From positions 3,348,001 through 3,412,000 of the forward strand of contig OZ287757.1 in assembly GCA_965649765.1 (NCBI GenBank): a stretch of DNA of 64,000 nt, given 5' to 3'. This stretch comes from Bispira polyomma. Taxonomy: Eukaryota. A program made the position numbers and the translations under genes. The notes under the pieces are model-generated. The model ran no database searches. It was not told the DNA's origin and was given only the letters and a program-made list of their open reading frames with translations. How positions within the stretch are numbered: the first letter of the stretch is position 1; each line of letters begins with the position of its first letter. This document shows, one piece after another, positions 6,967 through 59,800 of this stretch.

Positions 6967-9900
6967 ATGGCGGCTTTTGGATTTACAGTCTTTTTCTTGG
7001 CTGTCTCATTGGAATTGGGGTTAGGTGAGTAATATAGGATTTGTTATTGTACCACGGCTGTGGGACTTGACGGTAACACACTTGTTGTCACACTGGAATT
7101 GGGGTTAGGTAAGTAATATAGGATTTGTTATTGTACCACTGCTGTGGGATTTGTGGGTAGCTCACTGGCTGTATAGGATCTCCTCGTTCCAGGATTGTGT
7201 ATAGAGTTGGAGTGACGTTTCCACTTCATAAAGTATTAAATGTTTCTGGTAAAAAAATATTTATAAATATGTTATATTACCTGTTTTCAACAAAGTTCTA
7301 TATTTTTGGTTCTCTTTAGTAAAGTGTATATTTTATCATTTGGGTTAGCACATTTGTTTTACATGACATAAAAATATTTATTTTTCTCCATAAAGTCAGT
7401 ATTGTTTTGTTTTTTAAAAATACCACTTGGATTTAATTTAGTGAAAACCAAGGAAATCTAAGTAAGGAATTAGTTCTCACTTGTTTGAGAATATACCACC
7501 TCCGGGCTAGATCCGAGACTTGAAGCATTGCATAGATTTATTGTCAGAAGAGCTTTTAAATTGTACAGAAGATGCATCACATTAAAAATCCATGTCTGAA
7601 ATAGGGCACTGAATTGTTAGAAGGAGGCAGTAACACCAATATATGTAAAACTTTAAACGTTATTTCTCACTCGTAAAAAATCATCAAAAGTGCCTTATGT
7701 TTTCTCATCACTTTAAGCAAGTATGAAACTTAATGGTTAATGGGGATGGGGCATTGTGAATGTGTACATCATAAAGTTGGATTGGGATATTTAACGTCCA
7801 CTGTACTACCTGTTTAGGTTATATTGGGACGGGTAGTTGAAAACGCTGGAGGAAACATTGCAAACAATTGATCAAGGTTCTGCACTGAAACCAGCGGCCC
7901 ACAGTAAGGAACTACCACCTTTCCCACATAGGCATCGACGGAATTCAAACTCACGCCACCCAGAGGTGAGAGACCAATGATTGTGAAGCGCAATGTTTGC
8001 TAACCACTAGGCCACCGCAGCCCCGTGAACATCATTAAGGATGTTTTACATATGCCGAGACGTAAACCAGGAATATTTGAGAAATCAATTGTATGATTGT
8101 GTATGTTTGTATTAATTAATTTTTTTTCTATTTTTTGGTGTAATATGTCTTTTATTTTGTGTTTCAATCACAGTTTAAGTTTTTTGTTTGTAAAACTTTA
8201 ATGTATTTGATACAATAATTATAATCAATAGATAATGGTTTAGGCCGTTGTCGAGTACCCTCTACTGAGCACCCTTTTAGTTTATGATGCATCTGGTAGA
8301 ATGAAAATGTAACAAAATATTATTAAGGAATCACATTTCACTAGACAAGCAAGCAAGTCAATGTTTTGTATGCCAGAAGAAACTTAAAATCTAGATGTAT
8401 TACAATATATGGTATCAAGTGTTGGAATAAATAATTGTAATCTTTTTATTATAAGGCTCTTGTACTGTATATTTAACTATATCGAATGAAAATAACATTA
8501 AAATCTAGATGTATTTCAATATATGGTGTCAAGTTTTGAAATAAGTAATTGTAATCTTTTTATTATAAGGTTCATGTACTGTATATTTAACTATATCGAA
8601 TGAAAATAACATTAAAATCTAGATGTATTTCAATATATGGTGTCAAGTTTTGAAATAAGTAATTGTAATATTTTTATTATAAGGTTCGTGTACTGTATAT
8701 TTAACTATATCGAATGAAAATAACATTAAAATCTAGATGTATTTCAATATATGGTGTCAAGTTTTGAAATAAGTAATTGTAATCTTTTTTATTATAAAAG
8801 TTGTGTACTGTATATTTAACTATATCGAATGAAAATAACACATATTATTAATTAAACATTTAGGTTCGATCAATTTAGATAAAAGAGATTGAAAGACTAA
8901 AAATAAAACAAATGAAACCTAACAAAACAATTAAACATTTCGATGAGAGAAACTTGGATGATACAGTTTGAAAGACATTTTTACCGTATATACATTTATT
9001 TTTTTTTCTCCATCCAGGCGAAAAGGTGAAGGTCAGCTGGAAGGAATGTAACCTTGAGGCCGAGAAAAGACTCAACTGTGCTTATAATGGCATCACTGAG
9101 GAGAAGTGTTACCAGAGGGGATGCTGTTGGGCTGAAAATCCTGAAAGAGGGATAGCGTGCTACCACTCCATTAGTAAGTCTTAATAATACATCTGACACT
9201 TGGAATGTACAAATTGGTGCATTCGTAGTTCCGAGGATGCATGCGTTACTATCGGAAGTGACATGTTTTACATAAACAAATTCAATTATATGAGCTGTCA
9301 AAATATATTTAAGTGTTAACTCTCCGTTATTTTTTTCAAATAATGGCCTCAGATTTAGATATACTATGCAGAAGTATTGGTTCTTTGATAAGGTTGACAT
9401 TCCCATTTAATTTTTGTACAATTTGCAAAATAATAATACAGGATATTTATTAAACACTACATTAGGTATAAATAATTACTGTCCTTGTTTTAGTATCATA
9501 ATCTATTGGGAAATAACTGAGATATTTCACTTGACATACGGGTACCCATATTTACTTGATCTTGTGGCCTGTGTCTTTGCAGTATACAATATTTTTTGTT
9601 TATGTGCCATCTTTAGGACCGGAAAGTTGGAACTTTGCAAATTTGCAAATTAGCTTATCAACAAATACATATTTGTCGTCACAAAAAATGTAAATATATT
9701 ACACATACATGTCCAAGTTTAAGGTCAGAAAAGTGAAGCACTGTAAGTTCAAAGACCGCTCTTCACACACAATACTGATTTTCCGGGATTAGTTTATGTG
9801 TTTACGCTACTAAACCCTAAAGCCAAATGATGCTCTATCAGTCAACGTGGTTGTTGTGTTCATATTTGCTGGCCAGTCGCCAACACTCAAAGTTTAATGT

Positions 9901-19299: not shown

Positions 19300-22200
19300 A
19301 ATTTGTTTTAAATGGAAAAAATTATTTACTGAATAGGGAAATAGGTTTGACAACCGTAAAAAAAAAAGCTAGCTGAGGTCACACTTTTTTGCCAGTGCTT
19401 CTAGAAATGGGACTAATTAGCCTGTAAAGACCTTTAGGGCAGTAAGGCTCTCTTATAATAGGTTATTTTTTATCATCAAAAGCTTGAACATTGACATTAT
19501 CTAAGATACACTTGGCTTTCACTGCTGACAAGTGATTAGCCCTTTGAGAGACAGCATTGTTGCATTAAAATTCCAAGTAAGATAGCAAATGGAACACATT
19601 CACCTTTTTTGAAGGCCAAGCCATGAAGGCCATATGCTCAGAAGAGCCTCAACATTCTCTCCTAGGTCTGAGCTGTGGAAGGTGCAAATGCTGCTTGCAG
19701 TCTCTCAAGAGCACGTCTTGTCAGCAGTCAGTCCAATCTATGTGCATTATAAATGACAGTGTATGTATTCTATATGTCAACATTGACAAGCAACAAAGAG
19801 TCATGGGTTGGAAGACATTGCTCTAGCCCAGCCAGTTTATGCAGCAGCTGGTGATTGCTTTTGGTTTCAGACCACCTAGAAAGTAAATCGGCCAGTTTGT
19901 TCCTTATGTGAAGTATATGCACTACATTAGCTTTTATATCGAACTTGCTGGCTAACATGTATATATTGCACGTGTGTGTAGCCAAGGTGGGATCCTTGGT
20001 GTATCCACCCTGGAGGGCGCTTACAACGTAGTGCATGTCACACTTTATTAGTGTTATTAGGCCCTACCATACCCAGGCCCAGAGCTGTAAGGCCACTAAT
20101 ATGTTTACCATTTCTAATTATGCAATATTCTGGGTTGTCATATGATCTGTTATTATACCTCGGCGGCGAATCCAGTGATCCTATTGGTTAAAATGCGATC
20201 ACGTGACATAACATATTTCCCGATATGGCCCGGCAGTCGGGGGCCATATCACTGCAGCGGGCCATATCACTTGCACTATCTTTATTAAAAATCAAAAATG
20301 CTTCGGTATAATAAAGAGAATAGAAGCTTTTTGTGAGGGCCATACTAGGATATATGCACCGTTGGTCAGCCTGACGGCCCTCAAGCCATATTGGCCAGAC
20401 CTTGGATGCATATATCCCAGTACAGCCCTCACAAACAGCTTATATTTTCTAAGTAACCTAATCTGATACATTTTGACTTGCATTGATACCTACCATTCAT
20501 GTGAGGCACACATCCAACTCAATTTGTGTAGTCACAGGTTTATGATCAAAAAGGAGACACCATTCAATTGGTCCATAAAAGTGAGGAAGAAGTTGAAATC
20601 TTGTTTAAATTATTCTGTTACTTCGAAAGGTCTCTCAGTAATTCCTGCATAAATTTTAAAATGTTTCAAAAGACATATTTTATAACATTTTAGCATATTT
20701 TATGTGCTTAGCCACATATAGCAGTCGGCTAAATAAAAATTATATCTCACATTTTGTGCAATGTTTTTTTTTTGTTTTCTATGCCCCACATTAATCTTTT
20801 ACTTGCTGCAATTTTTCAGCTTCAATAGACCTGGTACATATTATGGTATTAATTGTTATATCCAGACAAATCACCTCTCTACTCAAAGTGACCAATTGTT
20901 TTTTGCTAACAGTTAAACAAAGTTGAGTGAGTAATGCTTGTAGTCGGACATTTGTATGTTGTATTTTACTGTGGAGTGATATGGGAAAAAAATCATCTAT
21001 GTAGTTCTAGACCACATGACCCTTTGTTTTTATCATAAAATAAACTGTATCGAAAAAAAAATGTTAACTGATATTGATATTTAGATGGGAGGCATTTATC
21101 AATGTAGTATGAATTCCATTTTTAACCTAATAGCTCAATGTCAACCGGGTCAATAGTGACATGCCTAAATTCCTGGCTGACATCGACCTTGAATATATTA
21201 CAACGCTGGTCTCTCCACATTGTTTGACTCTTTCATTGTGGGTGGTTTTATGTACCTTTTTAATGTTTTGTTTTTTGTAGTTGTTTACAATTCGTCCAAA
21301 TATTTTCTTTTAGTCAGGTGACTGGGATTTTGACAGCTTGTTTTGTGTCCAGATTGACCATTTTACACACACTATTAATACTACGGCTACTGCAGGTGCA
21401 TTGGACGATGTCAACGTAGCTTATATTTACAGTTGTATGTTTTTGATATTTACACATTTGTTTCAACAAGTGAAAAGCCTTAAAACTACTATTATATACA
21501 CTTCTGCCATATGCTCCTCTCTTTCCCTAGTGTCTTTGTCAACTGCATTACTGTAGTGGAATCTTAGTTTTTACCCTTTCATGCTGCATGTACTAGTCTT
21601 ATAAGGGCCATCACAGCATTCACACATATGTTTGTAGAATTGTCCCCCTGTTTTGTGACTTACAGTTACCATCTTCGAAACAACCACATGTTACATAACC
21701 TTACTTATTGGGACATTTTTTCACTGTGGTATTGGTACTATGTGTACCAGATCATGAGGAAGTTTGATTACTATTGATGTGACGCTGGGCATATGCCCTG
21801 TGCAGCCTATTCACCTTCTCACTTTACACTTCTAGCATAGCACTTTTTACTTCAACAGATTTATCGCCATGTATAATAAGGGTAAACCCGCAATCCTACT
21901 GAACTAATATAAGATCATCATAGCTAGGTCTGGATTTTGAACAGCCAGAGGAGACAAGGTTAACTAAAGCCTCAGCTCCCCCCCCCCCTCTGTGAAACTT
22001 TACCCTATCTTGGTGTGGGGGTCATTTAGGGTCTTTATGTCCTTGAGCCTCTGCTCTACCTGGATTTGAATGTTAAAATTTTGACGTATAAATTCAATGC
22101 TAGAGATAATGTTACTATCAACACTTTACTTTCTGGCCATTATTAGAGTTTATACCATTAGATAGAGATACGGTAGTATCAGCCTGTCTTTGTGCAAGGT

Positions 22201-34294: not shown

Positions 34295-36770
34295 TCAGTG
34301 CCCTACCCAGTGATTTTGAAGTAAGGAGCAACACAGGTAAGTAAAAAGGCTCAGATGGGGATATTAGTTTAATGCTTTCTATGTTAATTCTACATTTATG
34401 TACATACTGGTTTTTAGGGCCACCTTAGCCCCAGGACAAGATTTTAGTTTAAGGTGACCTTAGCCTGAGTGTTGTCAGTTTAAGGTCACGAATTTTGAGT
34501 TTAAGGGTAGCCCTAATATGACATTAGGGCTACCTAAAAGTGAGTTAAAGTTTTAGTTAACTTGTAAGTTGGGGTATTTTTGAATTACGAGGTAACCTTA
34601 GATTTTATTTAAGGTTGCCAAAGTAGATTAGAATGTATATCTAAAGGTTAACATAAAAAGGGTGGTAAGGTGGCCCTAGATGTTTATCTTTAACATTTAA
34701 TAATATAGTATGTGTGTAAAAATATGTAAATAAGTGCCAAAGCCCAATTAAGAAGTAGTGGATTTGGAAAGTAGTGGCTTGAAGGAGAGGGCCACTTGCT
34801 CTGAGGCATTGTGGTCCTGCACTATATACTTCCACACACAATCAGAGGTCCATGTGCCATGACTTTGAATATCTTGAATTGGTACATTATTATTAAAAGC
34901 TAAGGTAGCACCTGACCTCCGAAAGGTGTGGAAGGATATAGCAGAGTGTTGGAGCCCCAACCTGGTGAGTATTGAGGTGAGATTTTTCCTGATTTGACTA
35001 TCTATCATAGGAGACCACTTCTGGTCTTTTTTGAACTGAAACAAAGGAGAATTTTTGTGACCTGGAGTAATAACTAGGAGTACCCTAGTGGCCCTCACTG
35101 GACACAATGGAGAGCTGCCAAGACTAGAAATTTTGAGAACTTTGACTACATTTTTAGATTGTAAGGTCTTTGACCATTCAATTATTATGTGAAGGCCAGG
35201 AGGAGCGAACAACACGTCCCCCCCTGGCAAGCTGGACTAGAGGGGAGAATTGCGAGGCTGCATGAGGAACCAAATTAGAAATTCTTAAAAATGAGAAAAA
35301 AGCTATTAAGTACACTGCTCTGAATACTAATCCCATGCACATAGTGTCACAGGCTTGAATTATTTGGTGCAAAAGGGGAATGTCTATGATTGCTTTGATC
35401 TTGGCCCTGAAGGGGCTATTCAGCACGAGAGCTCTTTGGTAATATTTGATCCTACTGTCTGTGAAGGCCGTGACATTCAGCCCATATAGTGTCATTTTCG
35501 CTTTAATTGCAGATAAATAATTGGCAATGGAAGGGGAAGACACATTATTGACAACCAGAACTTTTAGAAATGCCAGGATAATCACAGGTGATATAAGACG
35601 TGGGCTGACCTGAGCAAAACTGCAAAGGGCCAAAAGATTCCTGAACTTGTTAGTGTAAGCTCTCTCAGTAGCTGGTTTGAAAGCTTGATAAGTTCTGTAT
35701 GTAGCCTGTGTAGCAATCTGTCTTAAGTGGCAAGGTATATCTGTAAATCAGACAGGCCAGTCTATTTCTAGCATGGTATGCTTGATTTGTACCCATTTGT
35801 AATGATGCACTAATTGTGATAACTTCTTATCATTATCTGCGGTGAGATGCCATCTTGAGAGAAGGTCAGCTACCGTGTTTAGTCTACCCAGGATATGTAT
35901 GGTTTTAAGACTTATATCCACTGAGGCCACCTCTATGAAAATATTTCGGGCGATTGCTGCCAAAGTAAGGTCTTTCGTTTTGCCTGAATTGAGAATGGTG
36001 ACGACTGCAGCGTTATCACATTGAATAATGAGGCGCTTACCTGCCCAAGTGGCTTTCCATAGTCTAATAGCTACTAAGATATTGAGCATTTCGAGATGTA
36101 CGATAGTCATGTCAAGATACCCAAGGGGAATTGAGAATTCATACACTTCGTCGTTACAGCGCCCCCCCCCCCAACCCCTGAAGACAAGCATCCAGCTGAA
36201 TACAGTCAGTGGTGGGTTTGTGATCAAAGAAAGCTCTGCCGTTAAATTTTGGTAGGAATTTTTTAAACTAATTCAAATCTTGGTGAAACTGGTCTGTGAG
36301 TTTAACCTTGTGGCTAGATCCTACTGATCTGAGGACGTCCAACATTCGATTTAAGAATACTCTAGATGTCCTTACACATTTAGAGATGTATAGCAGTTTG
36401 CCCAAAAGGGACTGCAGTTCACGTTTTATACAGCAATCTCGTGCTTGCCAAGTATGTATAAGGCTATTTATGTCTGCAAGCTTGTCTTCAGGGAGAGAAA
36501 CAGTTAGATCTACTGAATTTACCAGAACCCCCAGGCAGGTGACTGCTGTACTTGGGTAAACAAAAATAGAAGTATATTTAAAATGGCGGTGTCGCCTGCT
36601 TGAGTTCAATATAGAAAGTGAGGGTTCTAAGAAAAAGTGGGAAAGACTGGGGTCAATTAGTACAAACTGGCGAATCAGCCGGGAGGGCCATAGGTCATGA
36701 CCTCTGACAAATAAGTTAAGGAAAATACTGTAAGCACTGAACTAGCTATCCCCTGTGGGTCTATCCCGCA
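34295..36770 (-). mobile_element. Internally deleted, non-autonomous copy (copy B) of the tyrosine-recombinase retrotransposon
   Basis: Both termini are homologous to 53156-58688 (5' TGCGGG..GGGGATAG..TTCAGTGC; 3' GGGTAGGGCACTGA). About 210 nt of 5' leader joins directly to the RT thumb at ~36560. RNase H (35748-36227) and YR (34748-35740) are frameshifted at G/C runs. Confidence 0.93.
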
Positions 36771-50814: not shown

Positions 50815-53800
50815 TATCAACATAATATTTTGGTTAACTTAAGCAGTACTAATTTTTTTTTTATTTAACAACAGGAATCTATGATACTACTAAAACAAAC
50901 AGAATAAAAATAAGTTTAATTTTTTTTTTTTCAATTTTTTTCTTCTTTCTTGTGATTAAATTGGTACGCCTGGGCATAGTGGCATTAATGGTAGCAATGC
51001 CCCTGCATTTTAACACTTTTGTTACAGTCCACGCTGACACAGGCCTGTTTTGACTGAACCAACAGCAACCTACTTTCAAATGTTATCCCCAGTTAGAACA
51101 TAGTACACAAATTTATGTTCTTGCAAATCTGTGAAGAAATTAACCAATCCATGAGATTTTTATCATTTTTGTTTTAATCATGTGTTTTAAACACTCTCAT
51201 ATTCCTTGATTTTTATAAATGTCATCTTATGGTTTATCAAGGTCTGTTGAAAACAAGAACCCACCGCAATTTCAAATTTAGGTCATTGCGCATGCACTGC
51301 ATGAAAAGTGACGATGGAATAAAATATACTTAATATTTTACTGCATTAAATAGCGCTATTTTCATCAATATTTAACCTAAAAAATTAAGTTTTATATCAC
51401 CAGAAAGCTATTATTTTGTGATTTTCGACAGTCCAAACAGTTTATTAGTTGATGTTTGTGAAGAAATCGTTGTAAAAATCTTAAATGGTTGGAGATAAAT
51501 AGTCATTATGATTTCCTTGTAATTACTTTAGCTAAAATTTTAGAATTTATTTATCATAAAAGAGCAATTATTACACTTTCTGACCCTTTTTACGAAATGA
51601 AATTCCATTCAATATTGATTGGGATATTACAGTCTTTACTTTATACATATTTCTTTTATTGTAAATATGGTACATACAGACACACATGTTGTTATTTATG
51701 CTATAAGATGCTGGTTTTCATATCAGTTCAAACTGCAAATGACAAAATAAACTTCTTATTAGTAAAGCATTTACCTTAAATTTTTAATATGAGTGGTGAT
51801 TATGTGATGAAATAGTCACTTAATGGTTGTAAAACTAATTGGGTCTGTATACCAAGAATGAAGTGTGCTTGTTATATATGATATAAGCGACTCAGTTGCG
51901 AAAGACAGTGCAAACAAAAAAACTATAAATAGAAAATAATTTGCCATACATTTATTATGAAGAGTGATTATGTGATGAAAGAGTCACTTAATAGTTGTAA
52001 TACCAGTGTAGGGAAAGTTTTGTTGGAGATACTTTGTGCTAAAATCGAAAAATTTTCAATTTTCGCCCTGGCTCTTCGGTACGATTTTTAAAAGCCCTTA
52101 TACTAGGACATTGCTTATGTAGTTTGACTCTGCCTGTGCTACTGATCACAAAACTGAAAGAATTTTTTAAATCGGACAATTATTAATGGAGATATAAGCA
52201 TTTAAAGTTTTTATACTACATATGGTTTTGTATATTATTACCGAAAGTTTGACCGCTAACTAGTGACTGGTTCACTATTTTCTATTTACTTGCTTTGTTG
52301 TGGCATTATCATGTTATGGCCGACAGGTCATTCTCCGCTTGTTTATAAAAAGAAACAACTTATTCTTTCAATAATTTAAAAATTTTTTAGGAGAATGGTG
52401 TCGCCATTCCAAAACAGACTAACCCCATCAACAAGATTCTGCCTAGACTTGGGCTGTTGAAACGTGTGTTAAAAATATGTTACTGTCTTTAATTTTTGAT
52501 GTATGCTCTCTATACATAGACAAGATGATAATATAAATGGGGTAAAAGGCAAATAACTTGCTTTTATGTCGATAACTAGATAGAAATATTTTTAATTTTA
52601 ATGAACACAAGTGTACCTGTTTTATTATCAAATGTCATCGGCGGTCTCTGGGCAGCCATTTTCCAGGTCAGACGGGCACAGTCATGTATATAGGTCTTAA
52701 TGTCTTCCTGGTTTTCTTTACCTATTTTCACTATAGTTTTATTTAAAGAATCAAGTGATTTCTCCCTGTTTAGTTGATTAGGTGGTCTTTTTGAGATATC
52801 CTCATGAAACCTCTCCAACCTTGCCAGAAATTTTGTTTTGACAGCCTTCGGGAATATAAATAAAAAAACAATATCAGCGGTCATATTTTAAATTAAAATG
52901 CAATGTCTTAATATTGTTTTTTTTAACTATTATTTTGGCTATATTTATTATTAAAAAGATTTATACATCATCAAAATGATAAAAAAACAGTTATGCAAGA
53001 ATGTATGTAGGCTTGCAACATAGCCCAGGTCGTCAACAGAATGCAATGGTGACTTCACATTCTCGCACAAGAGTTATGTTGCATTGTATTTGTATTGTAT
53101 ACTTGCATTTTCAAGTAGCCTTATTGATGCAAGGTCTTCTAAATCTTTTAAAATGTGCGGGGTAGCGCCGTAGGGGATAGCAAGTTCAGTGCTACTAGTA
53201 TTTTCTACCCTGGGTTTATGCCCTATGAACCCCTTCCTAATTGGTCACTTGTGTACTAATTAACCTCTGTCTTCCGGCTTTTTAGCTAGAATCCTCACTT
53301 ACACTATTGAAGTCATTTAGGCAACAACGCCATCTTTAATATTTTACATTATTACTTTTATGTGTTTTATTTTTACTTCACTGATTTTACTATTTGTGTT
53401 ATGGAAACAAGAAATGCAACAAATGATTCACTAAGTGGTGCTACACACTAAGGAGGAACTGATCTGCAGTGTTTTTGCTGGATTCCTGTGTTTTACTCTA
53501 CTTTGAGTCTTGCGATTATATGCTCGTTTGAGCGGTGATAAAGGAACGTGGTCAAATCAATTATATTGCATCAAATTCCCGGCTATTTGCCTGATTACAT
53601 ATAATTTAATTTAGATTATCGCGTTACAGTTCCTTTAGTATAGTTGCAGGTATCAAAGACACGAGTTCTTATATTATTCAGAGGCTATGGCCCCAAGGAA
53701 ACAATACTACTGTCACAAGTGTGAAACTAGTCATATTAAACCCATTGATGAAAACTGTAAAATGCATACCAGTGTGGGAACCTCCAAGCAGAACTCTGTG

Positions 53801-56800
53801 GCTGGCGATGGTGTAACTGCTGCCGACGTTAACCTACAGATTTTGACTGAACTCAAAGCATTAAGTGGGCGTATGACCCAAGTTGAGCAGCAAGTTTATC
53901 GCGTTTCACATGGAGCCCAGGCTTTGACGGCGTCGAGCCCGGGGAGTGCAGCCCAACCTAGACAGGCGGACCAAACCACTTCTGAGCTACTGGTCCCGAC
54001 GCTACAGACACTACATACATCCGACTCCCTACAGACTGCAGTGGATTCACGTCTTAAGGAATTGGTGGCCATTAATAATTCAGGTACGTTAAAATCTCAA
54101 AGAGGGGGTCCCGACACTCTGTGGGTGAAGAATAAGGTGGCTTGGCCTCAGAACGTTATACTAGGGGGACAAAACAAAACACGAGTTACGTATGACGCGT
54201 TGTCAATGGCCCAGTGGGTCTCTGGTTTTGCCAGTATAGCTAAAGATGAAAGTAGTTTAGACGTTAAAAACCAAATGTTGGAGTATCTCACTGACCTCAT
54301 GGAGGACGCTCATGATTTTTCCTGGACCTCGGCTAAGGCTAGCCATGCCGTTGTACTGTGTAAAATGGAAGAGGGTAAGGTAACCTGGGGAGATGCCCAC
54401 AAGTTGGACAGGATTAGACGGGCTCATGCCCAAAGGGTTGTCATCCACACTGCAAATAGTAATTATCAAACCAACACCAGGAAAAGTCATGAGAAGTCCA
54501 TCCCATGTAGGTACTTCCAGAGGGGTACTTGCCCCCAAAAAGGGGATCACGAATTCAAAGGTGTGTCATATAGTCATGTGTGTAACCAATGCTTTCAAAA
54601 TGGGAGGTCTTACCCCCACCCTGCAAAAGACTGTAAAAAATATCCGTTAAAAAACGAGTAAAGCACTGCAGTAATGCAGTGCCAGCCTATGTTTCTTCCA
54701 CACAAGAGGTGGTCAGAAAAAAACTTGCACAAAAAGTTGTAAATAATTCTAAAGGTTGTCCCACTAGAACTGTGTATAATAGTCTTAAATGTAATACTGG
54801 CAGTACACATTGGAGGGCAGATTGGGCCAAATTTGTAAATAGATCTTATGCTGATGTGGTTAAAAGAAAGGCTCCCTCCAGGTCTGCTGACATAAAGGTT
54901 TCTGTACAAAGTGCAAATGTGAATCAGAGGTGGCAAAGTCACCAGGTTAAATGTTCACCATGTTTAAATAACAACCAAATTTCAGAAGTGTCCACAAAAC
55001 ATGAACTGGGGCACAGAGTGAGTGTTAAAACTTTCACAAAAGGTGCTTCCCCTTTTACAAGTCCACAGAGGAATAATGTAATGTCAAAAATGGGTAAACC
55101 CCCTCCAACAAAAGGTGATCAATTTGGCCAAAAGCTGGAAATCACAAAATTAGACATTCAGGGCAAATGGCCCATTTCCACTCACAATAGGTTTTCCCCG
55201 TTGAGTGACAATGACCATTATATGGACACTAGTGACAATTCTTTCACACATTTAGCAGATACTTGTAACCAAGGTCAAGGTCTTAAAATACTCTCTCGAG
55301 GTACTGGGGGAATAAAATCAGACAAATATGACCTAGAACTACAAACTAAATCGAAAAACAGGGAACTTATAAAACGTGCTTCCAACCAGCCTCAGTTCCA
55401 GCAATGGGATACTCAAACTACAGATAAGTATGGGTTTATTCCGCTAAATGGCCTCCAAGTTCCCCAAACGGATAAACGAGTAAAGTCGGATAAGTCTCTG
55501 TTAGAGTTACACACTCAGATTAAGCAGGACAACTACCCAAATTATATGGGGGCACAAGTTCAATTGAAATCTGAGTTGAACCCAGATGTATGGGAAAAAT
55601 ACTTGACTGACTACTGGGATAAACAACTCCCCTTTTTGATAAGATATGGGTTTCCCCTCGATTTTAATCCTGACAGCAAGTTATCTCATACAGAACAGAA
55701 TCATTCATCTGCAACACAATTTCCAGATGATGTGCATGCTTATTTAAAAGAAGAGACTGAGTTAGGGGCCATGTTGGGCCCTTTCCATAAGGCCCCCATA
55801 CAAAACCTCCATATTTCTCCCTTTATGACTAGGGAAAAGCCAGGTGCCGCACACAGGCGCGTTATCATAGATTTAAGCTTTCCTCATGGCAACTCTGTGA
55901 ATTCGGCTGTAGTCAAGGATAAGTATCTCGGTACTGCGTTTGCATTAACCCTTCCCACAATTGACACAATTACAAACAAAATATGTCGTATGGGACGTGG
56001 AACGCTCTTATATAAAATTGACGTAAGTCGGGCATTTCGTCACGTAAAAATGGATCCAGCTGATTACAATCTATTAGGCTTAAAATTAGACAAATACTAC
56101 GTCGACTCTTGCCTCCCATTTGGTTTTCGGCACGGGAGCGCAATTTTTCAGCGATTAAGTGACGCCGTCAGGTACATCATGAAACGTCACGGACATGACG
56201 TCACCAACTATATCGACGACGTAATCGGCTATGGTGACGTCATAGAAAGTAAACATTCATTTGATATATTGCTCAACTTACTCCAGGAACTAGGCTTTGC
56301 AATTAGTCACAAAAAACTTGTTCACCCCAGCACGTCAGTAACGTGTCTGGGGGTGTTAGTTAATACAAATGACTTGACAATCTCATTGCCAGATGAAAAG
56401 CTACTAGAAATAAACACACTTGTGCAAGACTGGCAATTAAGAAACTGCTGCAGTAAGAGGGAGTTGCAGTCACTGCTAGGTAAATTGTTATATGTATCCA
56501 AATGTGTTCGAGTTTCACATGCTTTCTTAAACCGAATGCTTGACGTCCTAAGATCGGTAGGCCCGGATCAAAAAGTAAAACTTACACCTGAGTTTCATCA
56601 GGATGTAAATTGGTTTAAAAAATTTTTACCAACATTTAATGGAAAAGCCTTCTTTGAACACAAACCCACTACCGATTGTATTCAGTTGGATGCGTGCCTC
56701 CAAGGTCTGGGAGGCCATTGTAATGATGAAGTATACCAATTCCAAATTCCTCTAGGTTATCTAGATTTCACGATAGTTCATCTGGAAATGTTAAACATCC

Positions 56801-59800
56801 TAGTTGCCATTAGGCTATGGAAGTCAGCGTGGGCAGGTAAGAGGCTAATATTGCAATGCGACAATGCTGCCGTGGTCACTATCCTCAATTCAGGCAAAAC
56901 TAAAGACCTCACTTTGGCAGCTATTGCCAGAACCATCTTCATGGCCGTAGCCTCCCATGATATCAGTCTCAAAACCATTCACATTTTAGGTAGACTTAAT
57001 ACAGTGGCTGATCTCTCTAGATGGCAGATCACGGCCAGCAATAATGACAAGTTACTAGAACTGGTATCGAATCCCAAATGGGTAAAAGTAAAAGACACAA
57101 TGTTAGAAATAGATTGGTCTATCTAATTGCAGATGTACCTTCCAAGCTAAGAAAGATTGCTACACAAGCCTCATACAGAGCCCATCAGGCCTTTAGACCA
57201 GCCACTGAAAGGGCCTATACAAATATGTTTAGGATATTCTTGGCCTATTGTAGTTTTGCTCAGGTCAGGCCTCGAAATATCTCCCCCCTTATTATATTGG
57301 CTTTCTTAGAAGTATTAGTGGTTAATCATGTCTCTTCCTCCTCCATTGCAAACTACCTTTCGGCGGTTAAAGCTAAATTGGCCCTCTATGGCCTTGACGT
57401 CTCTGCATTTGCAGATCCTAGAATTAAGTATTACCAAAAAGCCCTTACACTCAATAGCCCCTTCAGGGCTAAAATTAACGCTATTATTGACATTCCCCTG
57501 TTACTCCAAATTACTCAAATTTGTGACAGCATGTACATGGGGCAGATCTTCAAGGCTCTGTATCTCATTGCTTTCTTTTCTTTTCTTAGAATATCCAACT
57601 TACTTCCACATGCTGTCTCTCAATTCTCTCCACTAGTCCAACTGGCCCGGGGGGACGTACTTTTTGCCTCCCCTGGCCTCCACCTCATAATAAAGTGGTC
57701 TAAAACAATGCAGTCAAAGAATGTAGCAAAAGTTATTAAAATACCGAGCCTAAGTGGCTCTAGTCTCTGTCCGGTGGCTGCCACAAGGGCCTTGCTGGCT
57801 ATTACTCCTGGACACAAAAATTCTCCTCTCTTTCAGTTTAAAAAATACCATAAATGGTCTCCAATGATTGACACCCAAGCTAGGCAAAATCTCACGCAAA
57901 TTTTGAGGCGTCTTGGCCTCCAGCAATCAAACATTTCTTTCCACACCTTCAGGCGTTCAGGTGCCACCTGGGCCTTCAACAATAATGTCCCAATTCAAGA
58001 TATCCAGAGCCATGGCACTTGGACGTCTGATTGTGTCTGGAGATATATTGTACAGGATCACAATGCATCTGACCAAGTCGCCCTCACCTTCAAGGCCCTC
58101 CTTTCCCCTTCTACTACTTCCTAGTTGGGCTTTGGGGCTTTATTTACATACATTATATACAAATAAAATATAATAATGCTTAAATATAAATATTTTGGGG
58201 CCACCTTACCTTATACTAATTTAATCCTTTTACATCTTTACTAAATCTCTTTTGGCAACCTCAAATAAAATCTAAGGTTACCATTTTTCTTAAATTTAAA
58301 CTCATTCTAAGGTTACCCTAACTTCAAGTTAGGGTTACCCCTAAATTCAACCTTAAAAATTTCAATCTTTGGTAACCCTAACTTCCAAGTTGGGGCTACC
58401 CTTAACCTTAAACTCAATCTTAGGTAGCCCTAACTTTCAAGCTAGGGCTACCCCTTAAATTTTAAAAATCCCTTTGGTCACTTTGGCCTGTTGTCCTCAG
58501 GTTAAGGTCACCTTAAACTCTTAACTTCTCCTAAACTCTTGGGGCTAAGGTGGCCTTTTACTACACAGTATGTAAATAATTATTAGTGATAACATAGTAA
58601 AATTAAAGCTAATATCCCCAAAACCTACCTTTCTTGTTATTTTCCTGTGTTACACCACATCTACAAGTTTACTAGGGTAGGGCACTGAAACAGGTTCAGT
58701 GAACTAATTGTCAAGTCAAAAAAACTATGTTGGGGTGTATAGGGAAGGAGCACTGCGGAGAGTAGACGAGTTTTAAAACATAAGTGAGAAAAAGTATAAA
58801 TCCAGCCATCTTGGTAGGTGTTACAGAGGAAACAAAAAGTCTCCTTCCTCATTTGAGGAAAGACAAGTTGCAAGCTTTGTTATTCCTCATGACCATGTAA
58901 ATGTATGTATATATTCTATCATGGTTATTATTTTAAACATTTACTTTATGTTAATTAGCATTTTAAAGAGTCCTCTAATAATACCGGAACAACTTGTACA
59001 TACTTTCATGACGCAAAATATGTGTATATGCTATGTTATATTTTTCCTCTTTTTGAAATGTGTTTACCTCAAACAAGCCCTTGATATCAGCCGTGTCACA
59101 GGTTGCTCTGAGGAAATCACTGATTGATATTTTCAGGCCATCCGGTATTGAGTCATATGTTTTTTCAACCATCATCACTTGATCTAAGGAAGTCCTTTCC
59201 TGCACCTGTATTTGCATGTTGAAAACAAGTTTTAAATTTTAATATTAAAAAAGTTCACAATAAAATATCTTATCACAATGTGAACATACACAATATCCCT
59301 TCACAAATAGTCACCGACAATCATTATGAAGTGCCTGATATTTGATTTTTGTTTTTCATCTGCGTGAGGAGGGATCATTTGAAGGCCTTACAACAGGGTT
59401 AAATAAATATATACAGAGTGTTTATATCCAAAACGTCTGAGACTCTTCTACTACAGCAACTGCCTTCAGTAACAAGAATGTTAACACCATAGCCTCACAG
59501 TAGTAACAAGGAATTGGTACTGACTTTGCAGAATATGTATGTAGTTTATGTAATCTACTATATCAAGCTTCTGTATTGAGGCAATACAGAGTGATAGTTA
59601 TATAACTGTTTTTGATAACAAAAACGGAGTGTCCCTAAATTGAAACAATAATAAAGTTGTTTAGTGTTGAAGGTTTGAAATGTTTTTTTTTTTTAAATGA
59701 GATCGATATTGATCTATCTGGCACCATTTCCAAGATAACAAATGTTTTGGAAATAAACACAGTCAAGATGGGCAAAAAAATCAGAAAGTTTCATAAAAGC

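Follow-up and report, generated by a model that had tools for sequence, protein, structure and literature searches.

A likely spliced Gag-recombinase fusion in an Ngaro-type retrotransposon of Bispira polyomma

We analysed a stretch of 64,000 nucleotides (nt) from Bispira polyomma, here called the window, which carries three related tyrosine-recombinase (YR) elements, copies A, B and C. Copy A is an Ngaro-type YR retrotransposon in which gag, reverse transcriptase/RNase H (RT/RH) and YR follow one another on one strand. Our main finding is that this element likely splices out 3.05 kilobases, which would yield a predicted fusion of 462 amino acids (aa) between the N-terminal part of Gag and the recombinase, Gag(N)-YR. 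We put the probability of this reading at about 0.83. In the proposed mechanism, unspliced RNA would serve as the genome and as the mRNA for Gag and, by -1 frameshifting, for Gag-Pol, and spliced RNA would be translated into Gag(N)-YR. The recombinase would borrow the gag ATG because no start codon upstream of the first YR helix is common to the subfamilies of the element. An earlier note on this DNA had proposed these three products from one transcription unit, and the sequence fits that proposal.

All features of copy A lie on the forward strand. The gag open reading frame (ORF) (53687..54661, 324 aa from its ATG) encodes an N-terminal CxxCxxxH-x7-C motif, a long helix, a core and C-terminal Cys/His motifs. 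The predicted coding first exon, Gag(N), spans 132 codons plus 1 nt (53687..54083) and ends at a predicted domain boundary (helix 113-133). The phase-1 splice donor found there, CAG/GTACGT (54081..54089, cut at 54083/54084), is the one named in the earlier note. The pol ORF (54637..57126, 829 codons stop to stop) contains RT (Pfam RVT_1) and an RNase H-like stretch, and ends 37 residues past the latter. Directly after its stop codon (57124-57126) stands a phase-1 acceptor, TTGCAG (57127..57132), which makes up the whole 6-nt spacer between pol and YR. The intron predicted from this donor and acceptor (54084..57132, 3049 nt) would take in the 3' portion of gag together with the whole of pol. 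The YR exon (57133..58124, 992 nt) is Cre-like, with core-binding and catalytic domains and with R, K, HxxR, W and Y present; the open YR frame runs from 57048 to 58124 and gives Phage_integrase and SAM-like matches. Joining 54083 to 57133 leaves both exons free of stops, and the arithmetic reproduces the open 462-aa product that had been claimed. Gag-Pol would be made at a -1 frameshift signal at the end of gag (54649..54682), composed of the heptamer A AAA AAC (54649-54655), a short spacer and a hairpin (54663-54682). The hairpin is found in 11 of the 13 subfamilies printed, and both partners of one pair are changed in subfamily 2.

The acceptor is conserved throughout the genome. A genome search gave 122 scored YR matches, 80 of which were fetched whole (20 of the closest and 60 lower-listed, mostly of lower identity). 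Together with copy A, these 81 copies form 14 subfamilies with 62-81% YR nucleotide identity between them (one singleton was merged at 86%). Conservation of the acceptor AG had been set beforehand as the check on the proposal, and it is seen: reading on from the pol stop, the first AG encountered belongs to a phase-1 YAG in 78 of the 81 copies and in 14/14 subfamilies. The three exceptions are L104 (AG lost), L089 (AAG) and L098 (frameshift downstream), and the same phase-1 signature is present in 5 of 6 further loci. The bases after the AG vary (AT, AC or GT), always giving an Asp or Gly codon with the G of the donor. Spacers between the pol stop and YR measure 6, 7, 8 and 9 nt in 51, 7, 11 and 11 copies, respectively, and YR is distributed over the three possible frames with respect to pol (61, 12 and 8 copies), in keeping with the earlier claim that the spacer is not frame-constrained. 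Within one subfamily, spacers of 7, 8 and 9 nt occur and YR takes different frames relative to pol; in one clade of the YR tree the spacer has changed repeatedly. The pol stop itself (57121-57127 region) is TAA or TGA and never TAG, the next base is T in 81/81 copies, and the Ser codon that precedes the stop has an invariant third base. The stop, this T and the Ser third base may be part of the acceptor.

The variation in frame bears directly on the published expectation for Ngaro, by which YR would form part of a Pol-YR (Gag-Pol-YR) polyprotein made by programmed frameshifting or read-through at the end of pol. In the words of Poulter and Butler 2015 quoted in PMC13003380, a programmed frameshift is the probable route to Ngaro YR, and the YR frame of copy A's subfamily does overlap the end of pol in the -1 frame, as they describe. 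In close relatives, however, YR can stand in any of the three frames with respect to pol, and in most subfamilies stop codons interrupt the overlap (open frames of 330-358 aa). In L117-L119, about 240-310 nt separate the pol and YR frames. By eye, no slippery site with a hairpin was seen at the end of pol, in contrast to the conserved one at the end of gag. Read from the sequences, the frame variation contradicts a frameshift model for YR in this family, and we consider a polyprotein highly unlikely. For all fungal Ngaro groups, PMC3783388 notes that YR may lie either in frame or in a shifted frame, which fits a frame-independent route to the recombinase.

The donor could be mapped in 70 of the 81 copies, and its comparison between subfamilies covers 13 of them. 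The donor consensus is AG/GTAYRT; the GT is kept in 69/70 copies and the full CAG/GTACGT in 56. Of the 78 four-fold sites in gag, at which the mean top-base frequency is 0.54, the T of the donor is the only third position that never varies across subfamilies. Likewise, of the 50 Gly sites compared in gag, pol and YR, only that of the donor has an invariant third base. At codon 148 the third base is A in 13/13 subfamilies although the residue is Ser, Ala, Thr or Gln, Gly149 is GGT in 13/13, the Thr150 codon ends in G in 12/13, and codon 151 begins with T in 13/13 although the residue is Ser, Cys or Phe. Third positions near the donor and at other Gly and Thr sites vary freely. The freezing of the four-fold site therefore argues that the donor signal is not due to chance. 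Of the 70 copies, 44 have both exons open, and most of their first exons encode 130-152 aa.

The structure model of the YR exon (pLDDT 89) aligns with Cre from its first residue, which is matched to Cre 19 (Z 19.8, root-mean-square deviation 3.3, 273 aligned residues, 14% identity). The exon is therefore a whole recombinase without a start codon. The fold is that of Cre over the full length of the exon, and the predicted fusion differs from Cre in the addition of a zinc-motif/coiled-coil arm. The position of this arm would resemble that of the arm-binding domain of lambda integrase. In the Gag model, the part before the donor consists of the zinc-motif region, a long helix (45-76) and helix 113-133, and the core follows the donor. 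The Gag fold gave no PDB match at E 0.001 (best Z 4.9, mostly generic long helices), and its Atlas matches were all under 0.9. Speculatively, the 132-aa Gag arm, with its zinc-binding motif and coiled coil, could act in packaging, oligomerisation or targeting by tethering the recombinase to Gag particles or steering it to targets.

The splice-site signature extends to other organisms. We examined 120 YR homologues from other assemblies, 32 of which have residues called upstream. Among these 32, the YR similarity begins at Gly or Asp in 28, and the residue before it is Thr, Ser, Leu, Val, Ala or Pro in 30, as YAG/G in frame would yield. In an alignment of 45 Gag proteins, 44 of them chosen from 150 listed matches at 25-48% identity, the donor Gly is invariant (45/45) and its distance to the next motif floats between 3 and 13 residues. 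The donor Gly is followed by Lys, Thr, Asn, Arg, Met or Ile, that is by a codon starting with A, in 45/45 proteins, compared to 35% of all 680 Gly. Five Gag homologues (P0125, P0185, P0209, P0215 and P0136) are without the N-terminal zinc motif but retain both the donor Gly and the long helix, so it may be the helix that is essential in the fused arm.

More distant elements carry similar signals. A metagenome scan returned 34 loci with 23-44% identity over the longer matches, of which 11 were scored after partial, frameshifted and near-duplicate loci had been excluded. A phase-1 YAG lies 44-89 nt before the anchor motif in 11/11 of these, and the most pyrimidine-rich YAG is phase 1 in 9/11, compared to 42% among 235 background YAGs. 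When gag donors are scored in distant elements, the top one has phase 1 in 9/10 ORFs and in 6/7 lineages. Overall, distant relatives at 30-41% YR identity carry phase-1 acceptors and donors. P0287, a relative of one distant group, is named from the coral Montipora capricornis.

The best point against the fusion is the in-frame Met at residue 31 of the YR exon (57225..57227), the first in that exon and in the middle of its second predicted helix, which is kept in 14/14 local subfamilies. YR could be made from an internal start of its own, either this Met or the ATG at 57078..57080, carried by a short RNA that an internal promoter would produce or by an RNA in which a non-coding leader is spliced to the acceptor. 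The ATG at 57078 is in frame and open in 23/23 copies of copy A's subfamily; it lies within Lys-Trp codons (AAA TGG) of RNase H, as the earlier note had recognised, and is usable for YR in only 32/81 copies and 2/14 subfamilies. Among 73 homologues from other organisms, only 33 have the residue-31 Met. A start at this Met would lose the first helix and half of the second, which align with Cre, and the 30 codons before it are under purifying selection as judged by a ratio of nonsynonymous to synonymous changes (pN/pS) of 0.24, against 0.17 downstream (uncorrected, with synonymous sites near saturation). Nor would an internal start account for the conserved donor in gag or for the fixed phase, and we regard such a start as unlikely. 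Leader splicing, which such a start could use, may exist. A YAG follows a T-rich run before the gag ATG (53640-53689 and the homologous leaders) in 70/70 copies, in 68 by pattern and in the other 2 immediately next to the ATG, and about 35 nt further upstream the leaders have a recurrent CAR-GTATC. A leader intron is possible.

Several other points weigh against Gag(N)-YR. We infer the splice from 54083 to 57133 from conservation, and the pairing of the gag donor with the YR acceptor rests on their matching phase only. The acceptor could thus be real and have another coding exon as its partner, or the gag donor could splice elsewhere. Two other phase-1 GT sites in copy A gag score 5.3 and 5.1, compared to 5.8 for the donor, and the best-scoring donor of distant elements falls at a different position within gag, in some of them about 27 codons further on; the scoring matrix was an approximate one. 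The third positions of the two other GT sites are not conserved, however, no other conserved coding exon is seen upstream of pol, and any candidate gag donor would still produce a Gag-YR fusion, which makes a different pairing quite unlikely in our view. The pyrimidine tract is short (6-9 nt in copy A's family), and the remainder overlaps pol codons; a short tract would suit partial splicing. A branch point cannot be assigned at the usual distance: the YTRAT-like word that the pol stop forms in 74/81 copies precedes the acceptor by just 6-9 nt. Unexplained invariant four-fold sites are present in pol (2/176) and YR (2/132) as well. The copies and subfamilies are kin, so that their counts are not independent, and the Gly column of the Gag alignment was set by the aligner on 44 matches chosen by hand out of 150.

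Searches for spliced products covered reads, genomic copies and database proteins. Three read runs gave contigs that also cover unique flank at low depth and look like DNA; the 54083-57133 joint is not among the 15 joints listed (of 40), and these runs are no evidence either way. For spliced genomic copies, a degenerate junction pattern had 5 matches, none of them in the element, and a second pattern had 0, with exact patterns that cover part of the subfamilies. Gag-YR fusion proteins are absent from the best 120 of 452 and the best 120 of 218 database matches listed, from 150 listed Gag matches and from 11 matches to the distant Gag N-terminus. The database proteins listed look like unspliced gene calls on genomic contigs. 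One protein (P0293, 471 aa) has the right length for the fusion, but corresponds to a deleted pol-YR join.

Copies B and C lie on the reverse strand. Copy B (34295..36770) belongs to another subfamily and has an internal deletion from the leader to mid-pol; its acceptor is intact and its YR exon starts from 35740. The deletion was considered as a splice product and rejected, as its joint is not GT-AG. Copy C (19466..22010) is a distant, decayed relative with a donor-like site near 22003 and an acceptor AG lost near 19747. The earlier note had reported that YR homology opens with the same AT dinucleotide in all three copies, after spacers of 6 nt in A (TTGCAG), 7 nt in B (TTTACAG) and 22 nt in C (AG not intact); re-reading, by eye for C, agrees on both counts. 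It had also placed a G/GTAAAG donor in copy C at the position homologous to that of copy A. That site is indeed phase 1, but it lies one codon nearer the SQRG motif than in A, and copy C is too decayed to count as evidence.

Ngaro-like elements, of the order DIRS, are defined by gag, RT/RH and YR, the lack of a methyltransferase and split direct repeats A1-B1-A2-B2 (PMC9210276, PMC4157794). Copy A shares the ORF order, and its pol gave no Pfam match to a methyltransferase domain after RT/RH up to E 0.1. Full-length genomic copies are arranged as A1-body-B1-A2-spacer-B2, that is with split direct repeats and inner repeats downstream of YR, and B1/B2 are present in 6/6 extended copies from 4 subfamilies. 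The assignment to Ngaro rests on this layout and the repeats, as the YR tree has no named reference Ngaro sequence. A DIRS1-like element was ruled out by the direct repeats, in place of inverted terminal repeats with an internal complementary region, and by the lack of a methyltransferase; a PAT-like element would share the split direct repeats, but the methyltransferase domain was not found. No SGNH ORF was seen after YR in copy A of the window.

In copy A numbering, the genomic copies start at 53156 and end at 58687. Repeat A1, at the 5' end (53156..53351), is a likely promoter and recurs after B1 in full-length copies; repeat B1 (58131..58687) forms the 3' end of copy A, which is itself without A2-spacer-B2. 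Copy A is among the 15 of 23 copies in its subfamily that stop at B, the outcome to be expected if B1 and B2 recombine. A conserved and unexplained spacer of several hundred bases separates A2 from B2. Repeat A contains the conserved promoter-like words ATTGG, TTCCCGC and CGCCATYTT, the second of which we take to be E2F-like and the third YY1-like, and A1 has a CGCCATCTT motif at 53328, presumably also YY1-like. Repeat A was considered as a branch point and acceptor, and this was dropped because its AG is not conserved. By eye, the start of A (53186-53201) and the end of B (58670-58690) show weak complementarity over about 16 nt, and repeat B has several imperfect direct and inverted copies of a AGGGTTACCC-like unit at 58280-58540. 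Six copies of subfamily 2 (L071, L072, L076, L087, L090 and L082) are located within or next to a tandem array whose period is about 188 nt, which could reflect a target preference. Unrelated short tandem repeats occur in the window at 8377-8976, 1331-1684 and 7002-7169, with periods of 114, 147 and 84 nt, respectively.

The abstract of Goodwin and Poulter 2004 reportedly mentions spliceosomal introns in some YR elements, and part of the present finding may be anticipated there. Full-text literature searching, which covered neither that paper nor Poulter and Butler 2015 and was judged on titles and the starts of abstracts, found no report of spliced YR expression in Ngaro or DIRS. Retroviral env is a 3' ORF expressed from a spliced subgenomic mRNA (PMC5035971). 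In retroviruses, likewise, one unit gives unspliced RNA for Gag and, by -1 frameshift, Gag-Pol, and spliced RNA for the 3' ORF. The retroviral comparison made in the earlier note thus holds in its logic and departs in detail: here it is the integrating enzyme that the 3' ORF encodes, and in place of a leader or a few codons the first exon would be a coding piece of Gag, 132 aa in copy A, which would add 130-152 Gag residues across the family. The shGAG RNA of plant Ty1/Copia elements is another conserved alternative splicing event that sets the ratio of retrotransposon proteins; its product is Gag alone, whereas the splice proposed here would leave out pol and join Gag(N) to the recombinase (PMC5580714). 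In the excerpt of PMC7192593, splicing concerns a marker intron only. The copies described here match Ngaro-like elements in ORF order, in the lack of a methyltransferase and in split direct repeats with the inner repeats after YR. The difference lies in expression: a frameshift is the probable route given for Ngaro YR (PMC13003380), and here conserved splice signals suggest a Gag(N)-YR fusion.

If the reading is correct, the annotated YR ORF is a mere exon, and the real enzyme would be about 130-150 aa longer and carry a Gag-derived arm, so that studies of Ngaro integrases would need the fused form. The family yields one exact predicted junction, testable by reverse-transcription PCR, and through its frame variation it contradicts the frameshift view as printed in PMC13003380. 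ORF1 appears to determine the integration specificity of Ngaro (PMC8547959), and a Gag-YR fusion could offer a mechanism for this site preference. More tentatively, and at somewhat less than even odds, splicing of an N-terminal Gag exon to the recombinase may be a general, ancestral route in animal Ngaro, in which the arm packages or aims the recombinase; this would explain the specificity set by ORF1 in Cafeteria (PMC8547959).

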